A stretch of 59,875 nt of DNA, the filler included, from Globobulimina sp. (lineage: Eukaryota): the NCBI GenBank assembly GCA_003354225.1. It is 14 parts of 14 records of this genome, joined end to end, with 100 filler letters (N's around TTAATTAATTAA, not from the genome) between each part and the next. Parts side by side here need not be neighbours in the genome. Positions count along the whole stretch, not along the records: positions 25,729 to 29,911 come from PIVH01001504.1; 13 more parts are not named here. One strand, given 5' to 3'. The stretch's first letter is position 1. Each line of letters opens with the position of its first letter. A program made the position numbers and the translations under genes. The notes beneath the pieces were generated by a model. It ran no database searches, was not told the origin of the DNA, and saw nothing but the letters and a program-made list of their open reading frames with translations. Shown here in pieces: positions 8,888 to 32,095 of the stretch.

Positions 8888-11800
8888 TCACCAAGACCAC
8901 AAATCGTCGAACATTCCCTTATTTTTCAATTGATCAAGTTCAATTTGTTGTGATTTGATGGCTTTCCGTAATTCCTCCATTTCCTTATTTGTAGCATCCA
9001 TAGTATTTATTTTCGCATTCATGCCACATTCCAATAACTGCAAAATCCCTTGCTTTTCCTCTTCCAATCTCTCAATATTATCTTTATATTGCTTTGCGTC
9101 TTCATTCCATTTTCTTTTATTCTCTGCAATGTTTTGTGCCAAATCGCTTAATTGTTGCCTTATTTCATCATTCTTTCTCTTCAGAATATTTATGTGCGAT
9201 TCTCGAATATGTTTATTTTCTTCATTACTCTCCAATACATGGACAATATCATTCATTCTCTGAATGCTAACTCTTCTCTCTTCCTCTGCTGCTTTATGTT
9301 CCTGCTCCATTTTGTCATTCAATTTCATTAATTCCTCCTCAAAATCTCTGTTCTCGCTCCTTTAATGTATTGACAACAAATGATAGCTATCATTATCACA
9401 TATGTTTGCACCTAATTTTATATGTTTGTGTTTCTGAATATTGCATTCTCAACAAACATATGTGAGAATCATCGCTATTAAACAAATATGTTACTACCTT
9501 AGGGACATAATGACTCCTTTGGATTTTTCTAATTTCTCATTTTCATCTTTGATCTCATTATGCAACTCAATAATATTGCACTCCAACTGCTCAATTCTAT
9601 TCGTATTCCGATAGCTCAGATCAGCGCTCGACTTCCGCGCATGCTTCAAATCTCCACTTAAAACATCAGTTTCCTGCTGCCACTTTGCTAACTTTTCCAA
9701 TGTCTCAAAATGAGCATTTTTTTCCTGTTTCAACTGTTCCGCTTTCACACTCAAATCCTGCTGCAACTGCGCTGCAGTCAAATTCAATGAATTCACCATA
9801 TCCATGTTCAAAGATAAAGCATCCGGTCTCATCTCGTCTTCTTCTGACAATTTCTTTAATTCCTCATATTCCACAATTTGCTGTTGCAGCTCTTCCAAAA
9901 CGTTTTCCCTCTCTTTCTTCTCAATAATGGCGCGTCTCTCGTCCTTTTCAAACCGTTTCCTGTCGTGCTCGTGTTTGGCTTTTAATTTCTCATATTCCCC
10001 TTTGAAATCATGCACAATATCCTCCAATTCTTGTTTCTTTTGCTCCAATGTTTCCAGATCCTGTTCCGACAAAGCAACGGGCAATGCACTCAAAAGCAAA
10101 CATTATATATAAAGCACTGAGCACTCAACATTTCGTATTGACTCGTTGTTGGTGGCAGCATTCGACGCTTCTTCCTGTCGACACAAACAATAATATTAAA
10201 ATATGCAAATCAAAGCCTTCCAACGCAAAAACACTTAACCTTTGGCGGCACTTCTTGGCCCAGCAACATTTCCATATTTCCAATCTGTTCATTCAACGCT
10301 TCTTTCTGTCGCACACAAATACAAACCGTACAAATCTGTCGCAGCAAAAAAACAAACACACAAAACTTCAGTATGAGCATTTTCGAGCATACTTTCCATT
10401 TCTTCCACGTGGTGCAATAAGTTGCCATTTTGTGCCAGCACTTCATTCATTTTATTTTGAAACTCGTCTCTTTCCATCATAACAATTTGTAATTCGTTTT
10501 CCTTTTCTTCCAATTCTTTGTTTAATGTTTCAATGTCAACCACGTCATCTTCCTCTTCCTCATCATCAGTAACTTCTACCTCAACTTCTTCGTATTCATA
10601 TTCGTATTCTTGTTCTTCTAATTGTTGTTTTAATAAATTATTATTGGACTCTCCCATCATACTTAAATCCAATAGTTTTTGTACCGATTCCTGCTCAGCT
10701 TCCTCAAAAAAGGACATTTTTTGTTTTAAGTGGCCTAGTTCTGTTTGTAACTGACCTATCATTTCTTTATCGTGCTCAGTTTGATTGAAACTTAGTTCGT
10801 TTTCAAATGATTCATCGTCTTCGGGTAAAGGAGTGCCCGTTGGTCCGCCGCCAAATGGTGATTCATCATATGACGGATCTCCGTCATTCAAAACGCCTAC
10901 ATCTGTTTATAATGTTTTTATATATATATATTTGCTTTCGAATTAAACTGAAAATCAAATGTTTACCGGACATGAATACTTGTTTTAAGCCTTGTTAATG
11001 CCCATTTTTTGTCACTTTTGGTTTGGATTAATGACGTTTTCTGTTCCTCCAACTCCTCGTTCTTCGAAGTCAACGATTCAATCATTGTTTGTTGATTTTC
11101 TATCTTTTCAACATATGTTTTTTCTTTGTGTTGATACTCCACAATCAATGAATCGGTATTTGCTGAACTCTGTGCTGATATTTTATCCATTTGTGATTGT
11201 TTTGATTGTTGTAACTGAATGTAATTATTTTGCTGCTCAGTCAATGCATTGGATAACCGTTGCATTTCAAGCTCGGATGTTTTTAATTTTGCCTCCAAAT
11301 TAGTTATATTTGTTGCTTGTGTCTTATATGCATCCAATTGGATCAATAATTGTTGCTTTTCTTGTGTTAATCGATTTGTTTCTTGTTGTAAAAAATTGTT
11401 ATCATCGTTGTTTACAATTTTACCATTAATCTGAGCTTGAAATGGCTCATTGTTATCATTGTTATCATTATTAATATCGTCGAAATTCAATTCATTTTGA
11501 AATTGGCTAATATTCATAGCTTGCAATTCCTGTATTTGTTGGTGATATAAATCTTTCTCTTCCTGCAATACCATGATCTGAGTGACATATTTTTCATTTT
11601 CCATCTTTAAATTTTCAGTTTGTTGTCTGTATGAATCCATGGCTGATATTTCTTGCTGTAATGCACTGATTTGTTGCTTTTGATCATCGTATTTCTGTGC
11701 AAAGGATTCTTTTTCTTTATATAATTCGTCATTTTGCTTTGCTAATATTTGGAATTCGAGAGCTGCGTTTTTGGCGAGTAACTCTATATTAATATTATTT

Positions 11801-12051
11801 GTATCTAATAGTTGATCCACTGCTGAACCCTTGTTACCATGACCTCGTTTTGGCTGTGGTTCATCCTCATCGTCATCGGTGATGGATACGGCCATGTGAT
11901 TCAGAGATTTGTTCGTTTGGCGAAATTGGATTAGTTTCATCATTGACAGTGCGGAACCAAAGAATTTTTCTCTATTTAAAGCAGCACCGGATGTAGAATC
12001 AGGAGGGAGGTCATCGTCTGAAAATGTTATGTCTTCTGTCGAAGCATCCAT
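8888..12051 (-). CDS. Long multi-exon coiled-coil protein
   Basis: Collinear E/Q/K-rich ORFs (10963-12117, 10289-10891, 9494-10099, 8888-9328) separated by GT-AG-bounded AT-rich gaps. The exon phase near 10985 suggests a 1-nt indel. Confidence 0.7.
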
Positions 12052-12160
12052 GATGTCACTAGGCTGAGACTGAGAGTTTTTTACTAAATTTTCATTAATG
12101 AATCCTTTCACAAACAAAATAATGATTTAATTTCACAAACACTCCAAACAATATGCTGTC

Positions 12161-12765
12161 TTAATTCAATTCTGTCATTTTAAACAAGTCATCTTCGCTG
12201 CTATGCTCTTCATCATTCAAAGTGTCGCCTTTTTGAATATAAAATTCTCCATAATTTGGATCATAATCAAATGTAGTTTTGACTCGAGCTCGTTTCGATG
12301 GATCCATTACTTTTTCAGCAACATCTAAAGTTTCTTTTGTAATTTGAACAGCCGTAATTGCAGTTCCTTTGAGCGCAGTTTTCGATCCGTTATAGGCATC
12401 TTTTACAATGTCCACACTTGCATAATATGCTTTGCCTAATTTAACATAATTAATCTCATCTGTTGTCACCTGGCAATAAGTCGCAAAATCCATTACAAAT
12501 TTCCTGCAGTTTTCTGCTAACTTTTTGTATGTTACATCTTTTGCAGTATAACCTTTTACAAAATTAATCAATTGCTGGTATGATTTATTTTGAATCACAT
12601 AATCTTGTTTACCGATATTATAACTGCTTTCGAGCCCCATTTTGCTACATTGTTCGACACGAATTCGTATTTTGTTTTGAGAACCGATGTCCAAATGAAA
12701 TTTATCAACGCTACACTCATTCTGCCAGTCACCCACTTTATAGACAATAGTAATCCAATGGATGC
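12161..12765 (-). CDS. Permuted papain-like (LRAT/PPPDE-type) domain protein (5' partial)
   Basis: The frame is open at the edge and gives IHWITIVYK (catalytic His) and later YKKLAENCRKFV (NC catalytic Cys motif). Confidence 0.55.
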
Positions 12766-12865
12766 NNNNNNNNNNNNNNNNNNNNNNNNNNNNNNNNNNN
12801 NNNNNNNNNTTAATTAATTAANNNNNNNNNNNNNNNNNNNNNNNNNNNNNNNNNNNNNNNNNNNN

Positions 12866-15730
12866 ACTGCGACTGCGCGATGAACGACCTGTTGCTGGAT
12901 CTGAATCGGAATCATATTGCCCGGATTCCAATGATTTGCGAATTGATTCCCACCGAGAAGACCTGCGTCGAAATGATAGTGAACGGTTAATATTAAAATC
13001 TGGTGTTGATACAAATAATCCTGGACTCTCATCACAATTAATCACAGTGCCATTGTCGCAATCTGTGTCCGTGTCTGTGTCTGTCGGTTGCGACTGCATT
13101 GGTACAGTCAATCTGGATACATTGACCTGTGTGGTTGGGATAATATTATCTGCTGATTTTGAGACATCATCATTGGTGGAAGCGCCGGTGTGGTCGGACA
13201 GCAATTCCAGGTTTTTAACCTTTGGAGTTATTGCCAGAAAAAGTTTGTTCTTGTTTGGTGGAGGCGTAATTGGTGGGAACTGCGACAGTTTGATGTGATT
13301 TTGATTGCTTTCTATCTCCACTTTGAGGATTTTATTACTATCATTATTTTCCGAATTGTTATTGTTGTGGGGATACTTAGCGCGACACGCACAGAAATAT
13401 CGCCATTCCCATCTATGATTACCTAACGACGAGGTTCCATTATTATTCATTGTCATTGATTGTTGCTGCTGCATTGAGTTCGTATGTTTGTGTTTCAACT
13501 CGTTCACTAAATCATAATTACCCTCAGAAAATGTGGGAGCATCTGTTGGGTTCAGTCTTTTTATCGCATCCATTTCCCTCTGTTTCTTTATTTTCGCTTC
13601 CAATTGATTCCGGTGATCAGCTTCAAAATTCTGCAAAACAATGGCTAAGAACATGTTTAATAAACAATACACCCCAATCAGTACAAAGGAGACAAAGTAT
13701 AAAATCGCCACGGTATTGGTGGCTCTCACGCCATCGTACATAATATTCACCCATTCCTCCAGCGTCAATATCTGGAATACAGTGACAAATGACCAATATA
13801 ATGAGTCGAAGTTAGATCGGGGTATCTCGTCCAAATTATATTCCGCGTCCTGAGGGAACAAATACTTTCCGCGAAATATCTGAAATCCCAGCATAGCATA
13901 CATGAATATGAAAATTAACAGCAATAAGGAGATGAAGGTAATGCTTCGAATAGATTTCTTGACCACTTTTATTAACCTCTGGAAGGACTCCAAATAGCGA
14001 ACGATTTTCATCACTCGGAAGACGCGCGCCATCCGGAACACTCTCGCTAAGCGAAACACCCTCGTTGCACTCAGAAAACCTGCGCCTGAAGAGATTAGTA
14101 TCTCAAATAACGATATCAATGCGATCAGACCATCGAATATGTTGAAGGTGTCGCTGACATACGAACGGAGCGAGAAGCCAGAGATTTTCAATACCATTTC
14201 TAATATGAATAACACTGTGAATATGTAATTGCAAATAGATAATATCTCGTCCAATACTTGAGGCTGACCGTGATGCTCTACAGTCAGCATCAACGTATTT
14301 ACTCCAATGCAGGCCATGAAAAAATTGTCGAACCACGTCTTAGATACAAGATGTTGTTCCACCCACTTACTTTTCAGAGAGAATATATTGCAGATTGGCG
14401 ACCGCTTAGCATTGTTACCAGTGTCGATGGTTAGTGATTGATGCTTTTTTGCTGTGTCTTCATTGTTGTCGTCGTCGTCGCTGCTCTCATCCCCATGGTT
14501 GTCATCATTGCCTTTGTCAATGGCGCCATTGGCCACAGTCGACAGTCTTTTATTTGTTTCCTCCGAGTCCAACATTTGTGCTTTAATGGCAACCAAAGTC
14601 AAATTAACCACAAAGAAGGAGCCAAATATGATCAATAATACAAAATAGGGCCATGTCCAAAAACTAAAGGCGTCCTGGATCCGATACATCAAAACTGTCC
14701 ATTTTTCCATAGTCACAGAAACGAAGATACCTAATACCGCCACGCCGAGATTGTCGAATGATAATAAGTCAAAGTTTGGATTAACGTCGGTATAGACGCA
14801 GGAGTAGCCATTGCGACAGGATCGAGTACCAATGTCGTTGCCGCAGTTGGGCTGTTGCGTCGGTCGCGTATTAGCTATCTCGTCGAAGAGCAGCGTGGCG
14901 TCATTCTGACATCGATAGCGTAGCTTGCCAGAAAACAATTGGACTCCCACCAGTCCCCAGATTAAAAATAAAAATGATAACAGTACAAAAGCATTGGTCA
15001 ATAAAGGAATAGCACTCACAAATTGCTGCAGTAATATTTGCAAATCTGGCACCATTGCCAGAAAACGCAGCGGTCGCAACACTTTACCGATGCCAATCCA
15101 TTGTACAATGTGCTTGTTGCTTTCGTAGACGGTGTATCTTAATATTAGTTCTAAAACAGACGAACATACCACAACGAAATCGATCTGGTTCCAGGTGTCG
15201 TGCAAATAGGAGTTCTTTCCGAGGACGAGGCCGTATGTTAATACTTTTAGACAGGTCTCTATCACATAAAATGAGGTACATATGATCTCGACGAATAATA
15301 TGACGTATTGCAAGTTTGACGTTGCTGATTTTGTGGGGTCGTCTAATGATAAAAAGATGATATTTAAAGAGATGACAAATAGTACCAAAGTATCGAAGTA
15401 TTTATGATTTACTATTTTTTGGTGTAAGTATTGCCGGAATCGAGAATCGCGATGAATAAAAAATAATGAATATTCTTCTAATGCGTGGTCGTTTGCTTCT
15501 TTTTCTTTTTGTTTCTTCTTTTCGACCATTAACTGAGTTAATGCTAAAAAATCGGAGACATTGTTCACTGATTTTCTTTGTGCGAATTGGTTAGTTTTTG
15601 AATTCTTTGGTTTTGAAGGGAAAAGTATCGTTGTTAGTTTTCGTTGAGGGCTTGGATTAGCGCCCGATTCTGCATTTTGATTAGATTTCGGGACTACTGT
15701 GGCAAACGCTGACGGGGATAGTATCCTCAT
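12866..15730 (-). CDS. Voltage-gated Ca2+/Na+ channel alpha subunit, domains I-II (3' partial)
   Basis: Two 6-TM repeats, S4 segments KVLRPLRFL and RVFRLARVFRMARVFRVMK, and pore loops TMEKW and TLEEW. Confidence 0.92.
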
Positions 15731-25628: not shown

Positions 25629-26322
25629 NNNNNNNNNNNNNNNNNNNNNNNNNNNNNNNNNNNNNNNNNNNNTTAATTAATTAANNNNNNNNNNNNNNNN
25701 NNNNNNNNNNNNNNNNNNNNNNNNNNNNATATTATCCATTGTTTTAGGTATAAAAACGCAAAAATTACAGAAAACGGTGCATTACATATTTGATTGTGAT
25801 CTATGTCAGTATGTGATTGGATTTAATATATCTTTGTGTTACAGTTACTTTATATAACGCTCAATATGCAAATGCAACCAATGAGGAATTGAAGGGAGAG
25901 TTTGATGAGATGGATGCAGACGTCACCCACTTGTCAAACAAAAAAATATAACATTAAAAATAATTTTTTATGTGTGATTTTATGTGAAAGTGCAAGGATA
26001 TTTTATTGTGTGTTTTTTGTGGATGTCTTTTCTTTTTGGCATGATTTAAAAGGGATTTAAAAATTGGTGGACTTATTGAACTGATTGGAAATTTAGAAGC
26101 TGTTTGACACGTTTTTAAAAAAATCAGTACTTATCGGAGACCCCTATTGGACCAACTATATAATAAACAAAAAATTACAATGAAAAAATTCATAAAATAT
26201 TAACCTCCGCCTAATATGCCAATGATTGGGCGACGCGTAAGAGTGGAACTATAGCATTTATGTATGATATTCCGTCGAACAAATGAAGGTTTCACTTTCT
26301 TCAGAAATGAGTTCAGATACCG

Positions 26323-26422
26323 CTGCATGATTTGACTTGCGATGATTTGGCTAGCTCAAGATCCTGATGTTAAGGGAGAAAATAGTCCGGGACTTGAGGT
26401 TTGCAGTCGATCAAACATGCAG
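26323..26422 (+). ncRNA. ~100-nt imperfect hairpin, candidate structured RNA
   Basis: Nested pairs CTGCATG/CATGCAG, TTTGA/TCAAA, CTCAAG/CTTGAG, TCCTG/CGGGA. Confidence 0.35.
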
Positions 26423-26600
26423 AAAAATGAATATGCGTATGCTTTCAGATCAGATCACATTAACAACAATGCCATACAATCCTTTCCAATGCAATGTGGA
26501 ATATTTACATTTTGTCCCGTAATTAATTTTGATTTATATTTGAATACTTTAAATACAATACTGAGATTATTATGAAAAACAACAGCAAAACGCTAAGAAC

Positions 26601-26824
26601 GACTCAGTAGCTCAATAATAGAGCGTGTGTCTGCAGCTTCGGCTGTTCACCCACAATTCTCTTTGAAGAAACATTTCTAGTTTCAGAAACGTTAATTTAG
26701 ATTTGCACAACCTGCAAAACTAAATTTAATCCTTCATTATTCATCAATATGTAAATGTTTACAGCTAAATTAAATGTTGTGGATATAACTCACATAGATG
26801 CAGGTTTAAATCCTGCCTGAGTCA
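26601..26824 (+). tRNA. tRNA-like gene (GCA triplet at the anticodon position) with a 152-nt insert at position 37/38; non-canonical or pseudogene
   Basis: Acceptor GACTCAG/CTGAGTC, D stem GCTC/GAGC, anticodon stem TGTG/CACA, T arm GCAGG-TTTAAAT-CCTGC, and a T7 run at 26830-26836. Confidence 0.7.
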
Positions 26825-27196
26825 TTGGCTTTTTTTCAACAGCTCGACTATTTTCAAAGGAAAGAAACTACCTTGTTGATTTTTTTGAGTTAAGTAAAAA
26901 AACTAGTACTCTCAGTTTAATATTTATTAATTAGATATAATATTGTCTGAATGTATAATTTAATTAACAAGACATGTTTTACCAACAGCACCATCACCAA
27001 CCACTGTGCATTTTACATTTACTGTGTCGTTCATGATGAAAGTTTGAGTAGTTAGTAGTTTTTGAATTAAAAACTTTATAAAAAAACATGACGAACTCCT
27101 CGACACTGGTTTGAGTCGGAATTTCAAAGATTAATTCAATTTGAGAAAAGCAGTGTCATTAAAAAAAAGATTAATAATTAAACCAAAAGTCTAAAA

Positions 27197-28165
27197 ATGG
27201 TTTCTTCCGATGCCTCTTGGCACTTAAAAAAACGTGAATCGATTATAAAGAAGCACCCTGAAATTGTGAATTTACGCGGACCCTTTTATCCCAGTCTCTG
27301 TATCATTATTATTCTCGTCGGCATTCAATGGATTTTATGGATTTATATTCAAAATGTGCATTTCTTATACATTGGTTTCTTTGCGTGGATAAATGCCAAT
27401 ACATTTTATTATTCGCTGAGTTCGTTCATCCATGAAAATTCGCACGGACTTGTCCTCGGATGGAAGCACAGATTAATCACCGCTGTTTTCATCGAAATGG
27501 GTACTTTGCTGTTTGGCGAGTCTTGGGAATACACGCATGTCCATTACTTTATGCACCATCCACATCTCAACGATCAGTCCAAAGACTCTGAATGTCCCGG
27601 AATTGGCCATGTTGCCTTCCTGCCGCGATCCCCTTTGTTGAGAATAATCATCCCTTTGATCGAATTGCTTCCCCTCTGCTTTCTATTGACCATTAATCCG
27701 AGTAATAACAGCAACAAATCTTTCAAGAGAGCACCGCAACAAAATGTACTTCTCGCTGTCTCATTGGCAATGTTTGCCATTTTATTGTACTGTCAAATGT
27801 GGAAAAGTGTGTTATTTGCGATATGGAGCCTGTCATTCTTCAATGGCCGATGGTGCATCTCCTTGCATGGCCAATCCATTGCGGAACACTATTCGCGTCA
27901 TACTGGCAAAGACACATCACCGTCAAAGTCCACTTACAGATTATTCACAAATTTACTTGGCTTCAATACTGGATATCACGATGAACATCACACGTTTCCC
28001 AATGTAGCTTGGTTTTATTTGCCGCGGATTCGTGAAATGTGTCCGGATGAATTTCAAAATGAAAATCCTTATTCTTACTTGGAATTATGGTTGAAATGGG
28101 TCTGGAACTGGTTCGACACAGAATGTTTTAGATTATGTGACACTGACTCAAAAGTAGTTAAATGA
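27197..28165 (+). CDS. Sphingolipid delta(4)-desaturase (DES1/DEGS-like)
   Basis: N-terminal H..KR..I.KKHPEI..L.GP and His boxes HENSH, HYFMHH, FNTGYHDEHHTFP. Confidence 0.9.
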   Translation: MVSSDASWHLKKRESIIKKHPEIVNLRGPFYPSLCIIIILVGIQWILWIYIQNVHFLYIGFFAWINANTFYYSLSSFIHENSHGLVLGWKHRLITAVFIEMGTLLFGESWEYTHVHYFMHHPHLNDQSKDSECPGIGHVAFLPRSPLLRIIIPLIELLPLCFLLTINPSNNSNKSFKRAPQQNVLLAVSLAMFAILLYCQMWKSVLFAIWSLSFFNGRWCISLHGQSIAEHYSRHTGKDTSPSKSTYRLFTNLLGFNTGYHDEHHTFPNVAWFYLPRIREMCPDEFQNENPYSYLELWLKWVWNWFDTECFRLCDTDSKVVK

Positions 28166-28220
28166 CAACAAAAACTTTTAAGCAACCAAAATTAAAATAT
28201 TTAATTTAAATAAGCAATTT

Positions 28221-29180
28221 TTATATCGATGTGATTAGATTCACCGCAGTTTGCGAGACCGGAGGCAATAATATTGCTAAGATTGCGTGAGCCATTAACT
28301 GTTCCAATAGATTCCTTTTCAAACATATTGGCACTCTCTGAAACGTCTCGTTTTTACGATTTGTTATCATTTCTTTCGCAAACACATTATCTATGTGTTT
28401 ATCACAATGATCCTTTGTTATTTGGCAATGTTTTCCATCGAAATCAATAGAACTCGATTTGCACGAAACTAATGAATCCCAGCCAGAATTATAAAAAATA
28501 AACACTTTGTCAAATAATTTAAATACATAATCATTTGCATTCATTATATCAATAATTTTATTGTCATCGATATTTAATAATTCCAAAGCAGTTAAAGATG
28601 GCAGATATTTGTATAATAAATGCTGCGATGGGAAATATTTGAATATCCAGTCTGAAATTCCAAAGTGCGGAGCAGCCAAAGTCATCAATACTTTTGGTTC
28701 AATTATTTTGAAAAAAGCAGTGTCATTAATATTGTATGATGGATTTATATGTAATAAATGCGAGGTGTATCGAATGTAATTACCGCCAATACTCGAACCA
28801 ATCAATGATATTTTATTTATGCATTTATTTTTTTGAATGATGCCATATATTTCATTGGCTAAGTTGGTCGATGCATGCACTATTCCTGCATTTGTATGAT
28901 ATAGAAATGAAAATAAATGTGGCGAACTGTTGGAACTGGCAATGTAAATCAAATATTCATCTTCGTTGTCATGATTATCTGATAAGTGATGTTTTAAAAA
29001 GTGGTATGTGGGATAATTAACAATTGATGGATAGTTTAGGCCGTGTTGGATAACTATCAAATGATTTGGGTTTGAACTCGTTGAATGATAAAATTGAAGT
29101 TGCGTTAAATATTGTAAAATAATTGTGATCAATGCCAATGATAAAAAGACAGCAACTGGAAGTGTCGAGAAGTTCGTCAT
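28221..29180 (-). CDS. DUF676 lipase-like alpha/beta hydrolase with N-terminal signal anchor
   Basis: HLIVIQHGL, KISLIGSSIGG..RY, TLAAPHFG, DSLV. Confidence 0.8.
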   Translation of the reverse strand: MTNFSTLPVAVFLSLALITIILQYLTQLQFYHSTSSNPNHLIVIQHGLNYPSIVNYPTYHFLKHHLSDNHDNEDEYLIYIASSNSSPHLFSFLYHTNAGIVHASTNLANEIYGIIQKNKCINKISLIGSSIGGNYIRYTSHLLHINPSYNINDTAFFKIIEPKVLMTLAAPHFGISDWIFKYFPSQHLLYKYLPSLTALELLNIDDNKIIDIMNANDYVFKLFDKVFIFYNSGWDSLVSCKSSSIDFDGKHCQITKDHCDKHIDNVFAKEMITNRKNETFQRVPICLKRNLLEQLMAHAILAILLPPVSQTAVNLITSI

Positions 29181-29223
29181 GATTTTTGATAAAGTAAAAC
29201 TACTAACTACTCAAACTTTCATC

Positions 29224-29577
29224 ATGAATGACACAGTAAAATGTCTTCAAAACTTTAAGAAATCAATTTCCCCTCCACCCACTAAACTAACCATCCCCTC
29301 GTCATTTTTCAACGAGTGCAAAACGATATGTATCAACCGTGTATGTACCTCTCAATGGCTGATGATAAGCGGATGCAGCGTTCTCATGTATTATGCTGCA
29401 CATAAGATTATGGATCGGTGTTGCTGAAGTTTAGACGTTGGTGAGTTATTAAACAAATACTCGTTTATTATCAAATTATTTTTACGAGTGGTGAATGGAA
29501 ATAGTTTTAGGTGGAGCTGGGGAATTGATCATGGCGCAATATCGCAGCCTTATAATTATTTTGAACGATACAATTAA
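29224..29577 (+). CDS. Small hypothetical spliced protein
   Basis: ATG at 29224. Two GT-AG introns can give ...YGSVLLKFRRWWSWGIDHGAISQPYNYFERYN*. Confidence 0.35.
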
Positions 29578-30049
29578 GCTATGCAAGCTTCAAAGAATGA
29601 TAAAATAAATTATTTTAAAATATGTTTATAAAATGTGATGAATAAGCAATTAAGTCTTTTTATTCAATTTAATTACAATATATACGCATAAACGCATTGA
29701 TAAATTATCGTAATTTGGGAATGCGTGATATTAATTGTATTCAAATTCAATCAAATTTCAAATCAATGTCAAACAAATTATCATTAATTAATAAATCAAG
29801 TTCAAACAAATCCAATCAATTTCAAATCAAACTCAATCAAGTTTTGGACATTGCACCGGACAGAGAGAGTTCCAAACTGTAAAGGGAGAAACAATCAAAG
29901 TGCTTATTGACNNNNNNNNNNNNNNNNNNNNNNNNNNNNNNNNNNNNNNNNNNNNTTAATTAATTAANNNNNNNNNNNNNNNNNNNNNNNNNNNNNNNNN
30001 NNNNNNNNNNNTGAGTTTGGCAATTAACTGCAATGAATGATATAAACCT

Positions 30050-30892
30050 TTACATGTTGACAAACACAGAAGTAATGGTATAAATTGCAAGTAAAGCAAT
30101 AATGAGCCAAATGGGAATCTTTTCCACATACTTTACTATACATTGAACATAACCAATACCAACGCAAAATATAACAACTACACAACTTCCAATAAATACA
30201 CCAACCAACAATTCGTACCACACAAATGTTTCGCCCAATAATAATGCACATTGCACTGCAAAATCATCTAAACTGCCTAAAATAGATACAATTATTAACC
30301 GTGAAACAGTCACTTTATTGCCAGTTTTAACATCATTTTCAATCTCATCTTCTGGAACTTTTACGGATTCATATTCCATTTCCTTTTTTGCTTCTGTTAA
30401 TATCACTAATTCGCGATCGTCCAAAGCTGCATTTGCTGATATTGAGGCATCCAAATCATCAGTTGCTTTTGAGTCTGTTTTTTTTGCTTTTTGGTCAGCT
30501 TTCTCTTTGAACCAATCATAAAATAAATAAATGGAATATAAAAATAATATTATTCCTGAGGCTAATTAAATGTCAAAAAATAAAAGCAATATACACATTC
30601 AAAATCAGTCCTATATAATACCTAAAGCTAATATACGTTCTGCAGTCCAAAATGCTGTATTATCAGCCAATATAAATGTAACTAATTTTTTGCCGCCGAA
30701 ACTGATTGCAATCGCAGTTGATGTGACGAAACACATAACGGAAATATACAGTGATGCCATATACAACTGCGTCTTGACAGCTTTATTTGTTGGGGATACA
30801 AAGGGAAGCAACCAAACTATATCATCCACTGATGATGATAATTTGGTAACAATTGCAGCAAGGATGAGAGCAAAAGTTGGCACCAACGACAT
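30050..30892 (-). CDS. LysE/CadD-like membrane transporter (one intron, 30562-30621)
   Basis: Internally repeated SSVDDIVWLLPF / GSLDDFAV motifs in two TM halves. Splicing gives LAL|ASGIILFLYS. Confidence 0.65.
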
Positions 30893-30937
30893 GGTCAAAA
30901 TAGTTGTCTTAGACTGCCTTTTTTTTTATTTCAGAAA

Positions 30938-32095
30938 ATGTGGAAAAAAGCGTCAAAGTTCCCTTTCATCAGTCTTCAATTGCAAGCCAAAAGATTATTT
31001 TGTAATAATAACGCAAAGAATTTGGGCTTATGCGCAGTAATCGGTGGGAATGGATTCTTAGGTTCAAACATTGTAAATCAATTAAACCAGAAAGGTTATA
31101 AAATCCGGGTGCTAGATATTCAAAACAATTTAAATGCAAAAATTTTGGATGATATCACAAATATACAATATGCCAAATGTGACATCACAAATATAAATGA
31201 CATTGCAAACTCATTAAATGGAATACAAACTATATTTCATTGTGCCTCAGTTATTGATATTCGTTATTCCCCATCGCCGCTATTGTACCAAGTCAACGTA
31301 GATGGGACTCAAAATATTCTTGACTTTTGTAATAAGACTGTTTCTGATGTTACAAATATAATTTATACGTCAACCTTTGAGGTGTTAAATGTGGACGGAG
31401 AGGCTTTTAAAAACATAAAAGAAGATGAAAATGACGTGTATGGTAAAAAGTATTTTAATGTATATGGGCAAACAAAATCTATGGCGGAACAAATGGTGGT
31501 TGAAAATGTGAAAAGAAATACTAAGTTGAAAACCTGTGCAATACGGTTAGGTGCAATATATGGCGCTGAGAGTCCAATAATATTTCGGATGCTCTGTCGT
31601 TTAGATAAAAATGGACCGTCGGCAATGAAAAATCAATGTGTAATGTCGAGTTGTTATGTTGAGAATGCTGCGTTTGCTCATATTCAATTGGCGGAAACAT
31701 TGATAAATGAGCATGAAAATGCAAATATTGATGTAAATGGACAGGTTTTCCATTATAAAGATTGCGATGTTGACTATACAAAATTTTTACTTTGTGAGGT
31801 ATTTGGATATAAAGAGAATGAACTCAAATATATTCCAAATTTAATTGGTCTTTTTGTTGCATATATTGTTGAGTTTACAGATTATTTTTATTATAAAATA
31901 TTCAACAAATCAATCAGTGATCCAACAAGCGGTCTAAGTATATTGGGCGTAAAAATGTGTATAGCAGAACATACAATAAATACTGATAAATTTAATAAGT
32001 TAATCGGATATAAGCCGCCTATTTCAATGCAAGAAGCCGCAACCAAAACAAAGACGTGGATAGATGTAATCAAAGAAAATCAAAGTCAAAAATAA
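30938..32095 (+). CDS. 3-beta-hydroxysteroid dehydrogenase / NSDHL-like extended SDR
   Basis: VIGGNGFLG, FHCAS, VNVDGTQN, YTST, YGQTKSMAE, YVENAAFAH. Confidence 0.88.
   Translation: MWKKASKFPFISLQLQAKRLFCNNNAKNLGLCAVIGGNGFLGSNIVNQLNQKGYKIRVLDIQNNLNAKILDDITNIQYAKCDITNINDIANSLNGIQTIFHCASVIDIRYSPSPLLYQVNVDGTQNILDFCNKTVSDVTNIIYTSTFEVLNVDGEAFKNIKEDENDVYGKKYFNVYGQTKSMAEQMVVENVKRNTKLKTCAIRLGAIYGAESPIIFRMLCRLDKNGPSAMKNQCVMSSCYVENAAFAHIQLAETLINEHENANIDVNGQVFHYKDCDVDYTKFLLCEVFGYKENELKYIPNLIGLFVAYIVEFTDYFYYKIFNKSISDPTSGLSILGVKMCIAEHTINTDKFNKLIGYKPPISMQEAATKTKTWIDVIKENQSQK

Follow-up and report, generated by a model that had tools for sequence, protein, structure and literature searches.

A dispersed multi-copy family of tRNA-shaped RNA genes with a long insert in the anticodon loop in Globobulimina sp.

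The locus beginning at position 26601 of the DNA analysed here (the window: 59,875 nucleotides of Globobulimina sp., assembly GCA_003354225.1, joined from 14 records with filler between them, positions 25,729 to 29,911 coming from PIVH01001504.1) belongs to a family of tRNA-shaped RNA genes that is present in multiple, dispersed copies and carries an insert of 117-152 nt. As the best explanation, to which we give about an even chance of being right, we propose a Pol III-type, tRNA-framed RNA family descended from tRNA-Cys(GCA) and carrying a structured insert in its anticodon loop. The features of the window copy are as follows.

26520..26558, + strand: upstream box TAATTAATTTTGATTTATATTTGAA.A.TTTAAATACA, lying 43-81 nt ahead of where the RNA begins
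26559..26600, + strand: A-rich variable spacer ending in TAAGAAC, a possible 5' leader
26601..26636, + strand: 5' tRNA half (acceptor 5' strand, U8, D arm, G26, TGTGT, CT-GCA-G), by direct reading of the sequence
26633..26646, + strand: hairpin GCAGC-UUCG-GCUGU, taking in both the formal 5' splice site and GCA
26637..26788, + strand: insert of 152 nt in the formal 37/38 position, directly after CT-GCA-G
26651..26656, + strand: 5' strand of closing helix P2, CCACAA, pairing with 26777-82
26686..26735, + strand: central hairpin, subfamily A only; -10.4 kcal/mol, z = -3.8
26777..26782, + strand: 3' strand of closing helix P2, TTGTGG, pairing with 26651-56
26789..26824, + strand: 3' tRNA half (C38, TCACA, variable loop TAGAT, T arm, acceptor 3' strand, A73), by direct reading
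26830-36, + strand: run of seven T, a likely RNA polymerase III terminator

In the window copy, the acceptor stem GACTCAG (26601-07) forms Watson-Crick pairs with CTGAGTC (26817-23) at 7/7 positions, and the D stem GCTC/GAGC closes a loop, AATAATA, without GG. The anticodon stem TGTGT/TCACA contains a U-U opposition at 31:39, while the T arm consists of stem GCAGG/CCTGC and loop TTTAAAT with T at position 56. U33, U8, A14, A21, G53, T54, T55, A58 and C61 are all present together with GCA. An A-box-like TAGCTCA lies within the D arm GCTC-AATAATA-GAGC, and a B-box-like GGTTTAAATCC sits in the T arm of the 3' half. The first-pass annotation had read these stems and loops, the 152-nt insert at 37/38, A73, the U-U at 31:39 and the T run from the sequence, and we confirmed all of them; the four helices it drew within the insert were likewise found as written.

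Evidence for a family comes from contig depth and from related copies elsewhere. In the contigs of run X1 (the runs, three in all, are of one sample), depth reaches up to 2887 over 26497-26832 against about 6 (5-6) in the flanks, although such depth cannot be read as a number of copies. Loose ends of contigs coincide with 26601 and 26826, marking sharp boundaries. No contig was found joined across the insert, though contigs would not reveal a spliced RNA in any case. The 48 aligned pieces show 80-100% likeness, with 17 pieces at 99% or more, 6 at 95-99%, 12 at 90-95% and 13 below 90%. A search for paralogs, proposed by the first-pass annotation in ignorance of the multi-copy status of the locus, revealed copies on eight further distinct contigs, namely four that belong to the family and are complete (two of these almost identical), three incomplete ones and one distant full-length paralog, L064. 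The copies beyond those in the run contigs came from other records (L001, L002/L003, L004-L009 and L064). Loose ends seen in X3 and X1 correspond to the flank of L007 and to the 3' flank of L008, which makes these copies paralogs of the same organism or of one very close to it. The family comprises at least two subfamilies, A and B, plus the distant relative L064, and subfamily-B copies are embedded in a larger repeat, its unit measuring at least 1.4 kb. Inserts in the six full copies measure 152, 125, 129, 117, 119 and 123 nt, and D loops range from 7 to 16 nt across copies. Neither blastn nor a family nhmmer profile detected a second copy within the 59.9-kb window, and no copy was found in a viral contig collection.

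Taken alone, the window copy is marginal evidence. The annotation had named ARAGORN and Rfam as checks; with default settings ARAGORN made no call on this copy, and with introns allowed it did call it, but at relaxed thresholds only, among 6 calls (-ps90) or 117 (-ps80). Rfam gave no tRNA match for the window copy even at E<=10. A fixed-geometry cloverleaf scan found one site in the window, compared with a mean of 0.025 sites per Markov-simulated window (n=40), which is rare for one window but not when many windows are scanned. Folding of the 224-nt RNA is predicted at -63.5 kcal/mol (z = -6.58; 0/200 shuffles as good). We accept the window copy as real because a family of related copies exists. 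Among the sisters, L004, L005 and L006 match Rfam tRNA (RF00005, gathering threshold 29 bits) with 41.5, 41.6 and 35.6 bits, respectively, and L004 is called by default ARAGORN as tRNA-Cys(gca) with a 127-nt intron; L007 and L064 have no Rfam tRNA match. ARAGORN places the intron 1-2 nt away from 37/38, its ends being ambiguous. Default tRNA finders evidently overlook such genes, both ARAGORN and Rfam having missed the window copy.

Comparison of the copies shows which parts of the unit are preserved. Cloverleaf stems of 7/4/5/5 bp with standard spacing occur in 6/6 full copies, the sole exception being position 31:39. The 5' tRNA half is unchanged in 6/6 family copies except for D-loop length, and among the aligned contigs zero differences are listed over 26601..26636. 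Between the window copy and subfamily B, identity amounts to 0.81-0.86 in the first 20 nt of the insert and 0.64-0.81 in its last 20 nt, whereas the insert interior, at 0.50-0.52, lies within the range of the flanks. The tRNA halves and insert ends are conserved, while the interior and the flanks drift.

Helices are preserved in a manner that involves compensation. When L064 is included, 8 of 26 helix pairs have changed on both sides and are still paired, and only 31:39 is ever unpaired (in 5/5 full family copies; it is paired in L064 alone). RNAalifold applied to six copies predicted 31 pairs, ten of them with compensatory change. The T stem covaries, reading GCAGG/CCTGC in subfamily A, with CCTGT in L008, and ATAGG/CCTAT in four subfamily-B copies. 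L064 supplies 6/8 of the doubly changed pairs, the remaining support leaning on one subfamily split; in an 8-row family alignment only two pairs change on both sides (8/500 shuffles reach the observed score), and most helix pairs are invariant inside the family. The acceptor, D, T and hairpin stems all contain changes that compensate one another, which points to selection on RNA pairing and not on promoter boxes only. The annotation's argument that intact, covarying stems speak against simple decay is thereby borne out.

The same applies to the tertiary elbow. An A19-U56 pair, described in the annotation as compensating for the usual contact, is present as A-U in 5/5 full family copies and as U19-A56 in L064. 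Subfamily B and L064 have G18, which subfamily A lacks. The family departs from canonical G18 G19 and T54 Psi55 C56, whereas the same contig set also contains ordinary tRNAs, in which GG and GGTTCGAATCC are found as usual, with TTCGA in the T loop. GG-less tRNA-like sequences (L053, L054 and L060) also occur on this contig set. Replacement of the near-universal G19-C56 by A-U and U-A represents a clean case of natural covariation at a tertiary contact.

The UUCG hairpin noted in the annotation is kept unchanged in 6/6 family copies covering it and covaries in L064, where it reads ATGAC-TGCG-GTCAT, three pairs being changed on both sides and one on one side, all still paired. Since the intron pairs with the anticodon in real pre-tRNAs, the covarying hairpin might merely follow an altered anticodon. 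Closing helix P2 has a duplex energy of -9.4 kcal/mol in the window copy (8/500 shuffles as good) and an equivalent, CCAACAAC/GTTGTTGG, in L007 (0/500) and in L006 (29/500), but it is weak in L004 and L005 (120/500 and 199/500). The proposed CCACAA/TTGTGG pairing consequently survives as a CA-rich/GT-rich helix in three of five full family copies and is weak against shuffles in the other two. In the P2 3' strand, AAATGTTG.T.G is conserved in 6/7 family copies covering it, L005 having CAATGTTG. The central hairpin gains one compensatory pair in L008, where the top pair is G-C for A-U and 26695 A>G retains a G-U, but it is confined to subfamily A and lacks a subfamily-B counterpart. The remaining proposed helix, AAACATTT/AAATGTTT, is disrupted in a paralog by four listed changes, none compensated. 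As the interior is not conserved between subfamilies (only the two insert ends are), the idea that the tRNA fold protects a cargo RNA is unsupported in the form in which it was put forward.

Other identities for the insert were considered and rejected. Pfam searches with 15 minus-strand frames yielded nothing over the insert that would indicate a minus-strand coding exon. Insertion of a transposon with a TGCA duplication is contradicted by the insert ends, which read TGCAA in 4/7 family copies and differ in the other 3/7, and no terminal inverted repeats are visible by eye at the insert. Nor does the window insert contain, by eye, the TGATGA expected of a box C/D RNA. As for the surroundings, a Rho/Ras-like first exon may lie at 27034-26965 on the minus strand (weak Pfam match, E = 0.033), a neighbouring 993-aa ORF has only two homologs, and the nearest named relatives of Pelota are metazoan (45-51% identity). 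Genetic code Table 6 did not improve long ORFs.

The unit is preceded by sequence that may contribute to its expression. The upstream box is near-identical in the independent copy L001, while sequence farther upstream is unrelated; with up to three mismatches allowed, the window contains a single match, against zero expected, and contig depth climbs across it from about 6 to 78-518. It may be a promoter element of subfamily A. The spacer 26559..26600 is poorly conserved between the window copy and L001 save for TAAGAA right before the start, and the loose ends of other copies ahead of 26601 are A-rich. TTTT is absent inside the unit in 6/6 full copies (per-copy shuffle P = 0.13-0.47), and the first run of four or more T begins 6 to 32 nt downstream in 8/8 copies (6 nt in the window copy). 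A unit free of TTTT and followed by a T run is the pattern expected of a Pol III gene.

The alternative with most in its favour is that these are working tRNA-Cys(GCA) genes, whose long introns the endonuclease cuts at 37/38 to give a 72-nt tRNA with a G37 loop and an A19-U56 elbow; we regard it as a serious possibility, albeit a rather unlikely one. The GCA triplet is invariant in the 6/6 family copies that cover the anticodon, exactly as a genuine tRNA-Cys would show, and this counts against a non-decoding product; U33, U8 and the other positions listed above are in place as well. In all family copies the insert occupies the canonical site one base 3' of the anticodon (CT-GCA-G, insert, C or T38, 3' strand of the stem). 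Three sisters exceed the Rfam threshold, one of them being an ARAGORN call at default settings, and conserved exons and intron ends around a drifting interior resemble real intron-bearing tRNA families. Moreover, no other tRNA-Cys was found in the little DNA of the organism that was examined.

Several traits speak against this interpretation. A U73 discriminator is needed by tRNA-Cys; the annotation had remarked on A73, which indeed stands in the window copy, but base 73 varies over the seven family copies (A, A, G, T, A, A, A; T thus in 1/7) and is A in L064. Position 31:39 is never paired inside the family, G19-C56 is replaced although other tRNAs of the organism are canonical, and D loops extend to 16 nt. 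The 5' splice site is buried in the stem of a stable UUCG hairpin, and L064, under the same structural selection, reads ATG in place of GCA and so has no sensible anticodon there. The intron itself presents further difficulties. Human TSEN substrates contain a C32:purine pair at intron position -3 that closes a 3-nt bulge at the 3' site (PMC10539383). Reading through the six full copies gives T, C, C, T, T, C at this position, and L008 and L009 both have C; with a pyrimidine in 8/8 copies, the anticodon-intron pair is impossible (0/8), although the rule derives from human substrates and may not apply in the Globobulimina lineage. As regards length, PMC4090602 gives 6-133 nt for eukaryotic tRNA introns, a range that includes the sister inserts of 117-129 nt; the window insert has 152 nt.

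A selfish repeat, i.e. a tRNA-derived SINE or a pseudo-tRNA in duplicated blocks, spreading solely through those copies whose Pol III boxes are intact and whose fold can be processed, is in our opinion unlikely. It would account for the high depth with many diverged variants (the 17, 6, 12 and 13 pieces per likeness class), for two or more subfamilies with a distant relative, for the other GG-less tRNA-like sequences on the contig set, and for the location of subfamily-B copies within a repeat unit of 1.4 kb or longer. The tRNA part, however, is split by the insert and does not form a contiguous head, and there is no A-rich or simple-repeat tail, copies diverging 2 nt past base 73. By eye, neither a target-site duplication nor a terminal inverted repeat is found at the ends of the window copy. 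The box 43-81 nt upstream is common to copies, and a Pol III retrocopy would be unable to carry it; furthermore, the compensated stems (acceptor, D, T and hairpin) imply that pairing, and not promoter boxes only, is under selection. A classical SINE in particular is unlikely owing to the missing tail, the lack of a direct repeat at the ends of the window copy and the upstream box shared between copies. A cloverleaf arisen by chance, or one isolated tRNA pseudogene in decay and broken by insertion, agrees with the relaxed-threshold ARAGORN calls (among 6 to 117), the silence of Rfam on the window copy and the approximately 0.025 such geometries expected per random window, but can practically be dismissed in view of eight further contigs with the same geometry, boundaries and compensatory changes. 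What holds of the original proposal is a tRNA-shaped gene, not a decaying pseudogene, with a long structured insert at 37/38; its cargo is unsupported as put forward, and a classical SINE is unlikely.

We return to the tRNA-framed RNA family as the preferred explanation. What the comparison shows directly is the multiple copies, their sharp boundaries, the uneven conservation, the covariation of base pairs, the avoidance of TTTT and the T runs downstream; transcription by Pol III, processing of the ends, what becomes of the insert and any role in the cell are inferred from these. RNA polymerase III would start at or just upstream of 26601, using the A-box-like (26608-20) and B-box-like (26802-12) elements, perhaps aided by the box at 26520-58, and would stop at the T7 run. 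The RNA would fold as an L-shaped tRNA body that retains its acceptor, D and T stems and re-pairs the 19:56 elbow as A-U; because of these retained stems and the re-paired elbow, RNase P and RNase Z should be able to trim it exactly at the acceptor ends. The GCA triplet would be locked in the UUCG-capped hairpin and the insert ends would zip via CCACAA/UUGUGG, turning the anticodon arm into a three-way junction that bears the fast-evolving interior. Most likely, the product is not an ordinary decoding tRNA-Cys; more likely it is a roughly 200-nt tRNA-framed RNA, or an RNA that loses its insert by a non-standard route. A bolder version, which we offer tentatively and consider improbable rather than probable, is a natural tRNA scaffold with an unspliced insert, where the body would serve as Pol III promoter, RNase P/Z handle and stabiliser and the interior would be the working part (e.g. 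a small-RNA precursor, antisense guide or protein decoy), its payload differing by subfamily.

A full-text literature search, with most items judged at the level of abstracts, brought up no published description of such a family. Vault RNAs are Pol III products with tRNA-type A and B boxes, paired ends, conserved termini, a variable centre and upstream promoter elements, and the family, as reconstructed here, would resemble them in these traits. It differs in retaining a complete D arm, T arm and elbow, in being about twice as long and in being multi-copy; no vault match was listed in the Rfam searches, whose model may not reach distant lineages. With tRNA-derived SINEs the family shares high copy number, relation to tRNA, Pol III-type boxes and several diverged subfamilies, but its tRNA, split around the insert, closes on itself, it is tailless, no target duplication was seen and the upstream box is conserved.

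Nuclear intron-containing pre-tRNAs are similar in their full cloverleaf, 37/38 insert, pairing of intron with anticodon, conserved exons with a drifting interior, and A/B-box-like sequences followed by a T run. The family deviates from them in insert length (117-152 nt versus the 6-133 nt given for eukaryotes in PMC4090602), in lacking the C32:purine(-3) pair, in its 5' site within the stem of a UUCG hairpin, in an elbow that is A-U or U-A instead of G-C, in the open 31:39 and in a base 73 that is not fixed. If spliced, these inserts would rank with the longest introns so far described in nuclear tRNAs, and as they lack the anticodon-intron pair to which placement of the 3' cut is attributed, they would test the generality of the endonuclease rules. 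The archaeal tRNA-Trp intron, which carries a box C/D RNA and likewise owes its length to structured content of its own (PMC4090602), offers another parallel. Here, however, no box C (TGATGA) is visible by eye in the window insert, and the interior is not conserved between subfamilies.

Finally, in the engineered tRNA scaffold a structured foreign RNA is placed in the anticodon arm, and the tRNA body provides folding, end processing and stability. The family is similar in design, its anticodon arm likewise bearing a structured RNA on a tRNA body, with the difference that the scaffold is a laboratory construct, whereas here we deal with natural genes whose insert ends are conserved. If unspliced, the family would be nature's equivalent of this construct, a class of RNAs in multiple copies borrowing the tRNA body for transcription, trimming and stability.

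The tRNA-shaped unit at 26601-26824 is a real feature of the window, and when the sequence was re-read every element listed in the first-pass annotation was present as described.

Parts of the window copy
Ends of 26601-26824, + strand: acceptor stem GACTCAG/CTGAGTC, perfect 7 bp
Within 26601-26824, + strand: D arm GCTC-AATAATA-GAGC, then G26 (direct reading)
Within 26601-26824, + strand: anticodon stem TGTGT/TCACA, U-U at 31:39 (direct reading)
26637-26788, + strand: 152-nt insert, following CT-GCA-G (direct reading)
Within 26601-26824, + strand: variable loop TAGAT (direct reading)
Within 26601-26824, + strand: T arm GCAGG-TTTAAAT-CCTGC (direct reading)
26824, + strand: position 73 = A, end of the unit (direct reading)
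26830-36, + strand: run of seven T (direct reading)

By itself, the window copy is only marginal evidence of a gene. ARAGORN made no call in the window at default, nor with introns of 0-300 nt permitted; the long-intron search proposed earlier returned the element only at relaxed score thresholds, as one of six window calls at -ps90 and one of 117 at -ps80. The proposed Rfam comparison gave no tRNA match around the element, even at E<=10. Our own cloverleaf scan (perfect acceptor, D and T stems, at least four of five anticodon-stem pairs, standard spacing, insert of at most 300 nt) found one site in the window, the element itself, against a mean of 0.025 per first-order Markov copy (n=40), which makes such a site rare in one window, not in a scan covering a great many. 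For the 224-nt RNA the fold energy is -63.5 kcal/mol (z = -6.58), equalled by 0 of 200 shuffles; at minimum energy the anticodon stem's 5' strand finds a local partner instead, and imposing the cloverleaf costs 4.7 kcal/mol.

The window comes from the nuclear genome of an AT-rich, intron-poor eukaryote, suits the standard genetic code, and carries Pelota/Dom34, DENN, ion-channel, fatty-acid desaturase and 3-beta-HSD genes. The lineage is sparsely sampled: a neighbouring 993-aa ORF has only two homologs (best 34% identity), and the nearest named relatives of Pelota are metazoan (45-51% identity). The element sits within a 1.7-kb inter-ORF gap. About 200 nt from it, without overlap, lies a Ras/Rho-like short first exon (27034-26965, - strand); the ORF start reads MNDTVNVKCTVVGDGAVGKTCL, a Rho/Ras-type P-loop (Pfam Ras E = 0.033), a stop follows, and a GT overlaps the final codon. 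No continuation exons were found down to 25400, and it may be either a fragment or a gene whose other exons went undetected. The sole above-threshold Rfam match in the window, an IRE_II at 30814-30844 (- strand; 33.4 bits, threshold 30, E = 0.012), is unrelated to the element and, lying inside ORF 30570-31040 on the opposite strand, is probably due to chance. Paired 44-N runs recur every ~4288 nt (13 pairs, e.g. 25629-25672 and 25685-25728) and split several long ORFs (e.g. 32517-34121/34365-35600); they look like masking, not assembly gaps. Four consecutive minus-strand ORFs at 10289-15730, the largest (12818-15730) with two Ion_trans repeats (E = 5.5e-103), have the look of a single multi-repeat cation-channel gene broken by two 44-72 nt gaps and one N mask.

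Contigs of three public runs (one sample; library type not on record) were aligned to 26301-27140. Their depth was 5-6 in the flanks, 78-524 over 26497-26608, 2887 over 26609-36, 1395 over 26637-64, 12-295 in the insert interior, and 760 and 439 over 26777-26832; contig depth is not copy number, and rarer variants in deep bins would go unlisted. In one run (X1), 48 pieces aligned, 17, 6, 12 and 13 of them at >=99, 95-99, 90-95 and <90% likeness, with loose ends at 26601 (before) and 26826 (behind). A 701-nt paralogous contig (X3) covers 26618-26826 and differs by 26 substitutions and 11 gaps; the 25 substitutions listed all fall within 26664-26786 and none in either tRNA half.

The search for paralogs recommended earlier did recover related copies from other contigs. 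A 28-nt pattern search of metagenome contigs gave L001 (the 5' 119 nt of a copy plus upstream DNA), and a 26-nt pattern search gave no copy in viral contigs. In genome contigs it gave two short AT-rich contigs (L002, L003) filed under a gammaproteobacterial MAG, G001; these are the same contigs as L004 and L005 and add no independent copies. Searching G001 yielded four full copies (L004-L007) and two 3' parts (L008, L009), and with the window element as query a distant full-length relative, L064. Loose ends in X3 and X1 match the flank upstream of L007 and the one 3' of L008; these contigs are therefore eukaryotic, from the same organism or a very close one, and were binned with a bacterium. 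On short ~30% GC contigs the MAG record includes tRNA genes of eukaryote type along with the tRNA-like family and a U3-like gene, which looks like repeats of a host or co-occurring eukaryote. The recovered copies are paralogs, not orthologs; L004 and L005 (91% identity across 1.4 kb) may be alleles, and L001 and L008 two ends of a single locus. Neither blastn nor a family nhmmer profile found a second copy within the window.

The family falls into subfamily A (window, L001, L008, L009) and subfamily B (L004-L007). The D loop is AATAATA in A and 9, 9, 12 and 16 nt long in B, where it contains a G; the T stem is GCAGG/CCTGC in A (CCTGT in L008) and ATAGG/CCTAT in B; the insert measures 152 nt in A (window; the others are partial) and 117-129 nt in B. 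Identity between the window copy and subfamily B is 0.80-0.92 in the 5' half (the entire loss falling in the D loop), 0.81-0.86 in the first 20 nt of the insert, 0.50-0.52 in its interior, 0.64-0.81 in its last 20 nt, 0.81-0.86 in the 3' half and 0.38-0.58 in the flanks. The tRNA body and both insert ends are therefore kept, while the interior drifts at flank rate, and the idea of a cargo RNA protected by the tRNA fold finds no conserved cargo there.

Between the subfamilies, pair 49:65 is G-C in A and A-U in B, L008 having the intermediate G-U, and 50:64 is C-G in A and U-A in B; all other family helix pairs are invariant. In the eight-row family alignment 92.7% of cells are paired, and shuffling the columns gave the observed score or better in 8 of 500 trials. 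L064 has identical geometry and many substitutions, all compatible with pairing: acceptor GGTTCAG/CTGAACC (two compensated pairs), D stem TCTC/GAGA (one), anticodon stem TGTGC/GCACA (31:39 = C-G), T stem GTGGG/CCTGC, and hairpin ATGAC-TGCG-GTCAT against GCAGC-TTCG-GCTGT in the family (three pairs compensated, one altered on one side). The covariation asked for earlier is seen: among 26 helix pairs compared over the six full copies, eight are altered at both positions with pairing kept, mostly dependent on one distant sequence, L064, and 31:39 alone is ever unpaired. RNAalifold on these copies gave 31 pairs, ten with compensatory change, recovering the acceptor, D, anticodon, hairpin and T helices.

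At the tertiary 19:56 pair, the five full family copies show A-U and L064 shows U-A, whereas ordinary tRNAs of the same contig set (a six-gene cluster; a tRNA-Asn with an 11-nt intron) carry the usual GG and GGTTCGAATCC; the compensated elbow noticed at first reading is therefore real and recurrent. The cluster, on a 1339-nt contig (L033), is dense and holds canonical eukaryote-type Thr, Leu, Ile, Gln, Asn and Phe genes, the Asn gene being the one with the intron, and shows standard GG and TTCGA motifs in the ordinary tRNAs of the organism. L064 (16-212, + strand) has the same tRNA frame with a 123-nt insert, ATG replacing GCA, a UGCG-capped hairpin and the U19-A56 elbow, and hints at a wider superfamily of such genes. 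Three further tRNA-like sequences on short AT-rich G001 contigs (L053 540-611, L054 8-82, L060 1-68) have no D-loop GG; one is Lys-like, two have an 8-nt anticodon loop, and these could be organelle tRNAs or additional repeats of tRNA origin.

The insert begins with a conserved CTTCGGCTGT followed by a C/A-rich tract and ends with a conserved AAATGTTG.T.G, and the C/A-rich tract is able to pair with the G/T-rich end. This closing helix, noted earlier as CCACAA/TTGTGG, holds in the window (-9.4 kcal/mol; 8 of 500 shuffles as good), in L007 (CCAACAAC/GTTGTTGG, -11.9 kcal/mol, 0/500) and in L006 (-8.1 kcal/mol, 29/500), and is weak in L004 and L005 (120 and 199/500). A central hairpin (26686-26735, z = -3.8) is specific to subfamily A, its top pair being G-C in L008 versus A-U. 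The helix AAACATTT/AAATGTTT, also noted earlier, shows four uncompensated changes in the X3 paralog.

TTTT is absent from all six full copies (194-224 nt, 27-33% T; per-copy shuffle P = 0.13-0.47), as it is from 8-11% of 224-nt window stretches with like T content, and the first run of at least four T lies 6-32 nt downstream in 8/8 copies. The D-arm and T-arm sequences are A- and B-box-like. In subfamily A a common 39-nt box lies 43-81 nt upstream, then a variable A-rich spacer; subfamily B, by eye, shares a different upstream block and common downstream DNA. A U3 snoRNA-like gene follows about 395 nt downstream of the subfamily-B tRNA-like gene and shares its strand.

U3-like sequences
L005 813-930, + strand: Rfam U3, 28-30 bits (both this and the next), threshold 34
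L004 513-635, - strand: Rfam U3, as for L005
L006 45-161, - strand: related ACEA_U3 model, 26.8 bits, threshold 55

In L005 the 5' box A region and GAUGAUGA align, and the tRNA-like and U3-like genes lie within a common repeat unit of at least 1.4 kb.

On sequence comparison, the element is a member of a multi-copy family of putative Pol III-type genes of tRNA-Cys descent, whose RNAs are tRNA-shaped and bear a structured insert in the anticodon loop. We infer its transcription, end trimming and insert fate. That it is a tRNA-framed RNA other than a standard decoding tRNA is the reading we favour, at about even odds. A working long-intron tRNA-Cys is possible though doubtful: GCA is invariant in the six family copies covering the anticodon, the insert occupies the canonical intron site, three sister copies score 41.5, 41.6 and 35.6 bits with Rfam tRNA (threshold 29), and ARAGORN at default calls L004 a tRNA-Cys with a 127-nt intron. 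Against this, base 73 varies among family copies (A,A,G,T,A,A,A), none of the five full family copies pairs 31:39, D loops are up to 16 nt long, the elbow departs from the canonical pair of the organism's other tRNAs, the 5' cut site lies within the UUCG hairpin stem, and L064, under equal structural selection, has ATG where the family has GCA. A selfish SINE-like repeat, to which the multi-copy state lends itself and beside which the compensated helices have to be set, we consider improbable, and chance or simple decay is, beside the same helices, hardly credible. A small share of the probability goes to readings other than these four.

We found no description of such a tRNA-shaped long-insert family in the literature. 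In the human endonuclease structure (PMC10539383), a pair between C32 and the purine at position -3 of the intron closes a 3-nt bulge; a pyrimidine stands at that position in 8/8 copies, a further point against a working tRNA-Cys. Eukaryotic tRNA introns range from 6 to 133 nt according to a review (PMC4090602), and the window insert, at 152 nt, exceeds that range.
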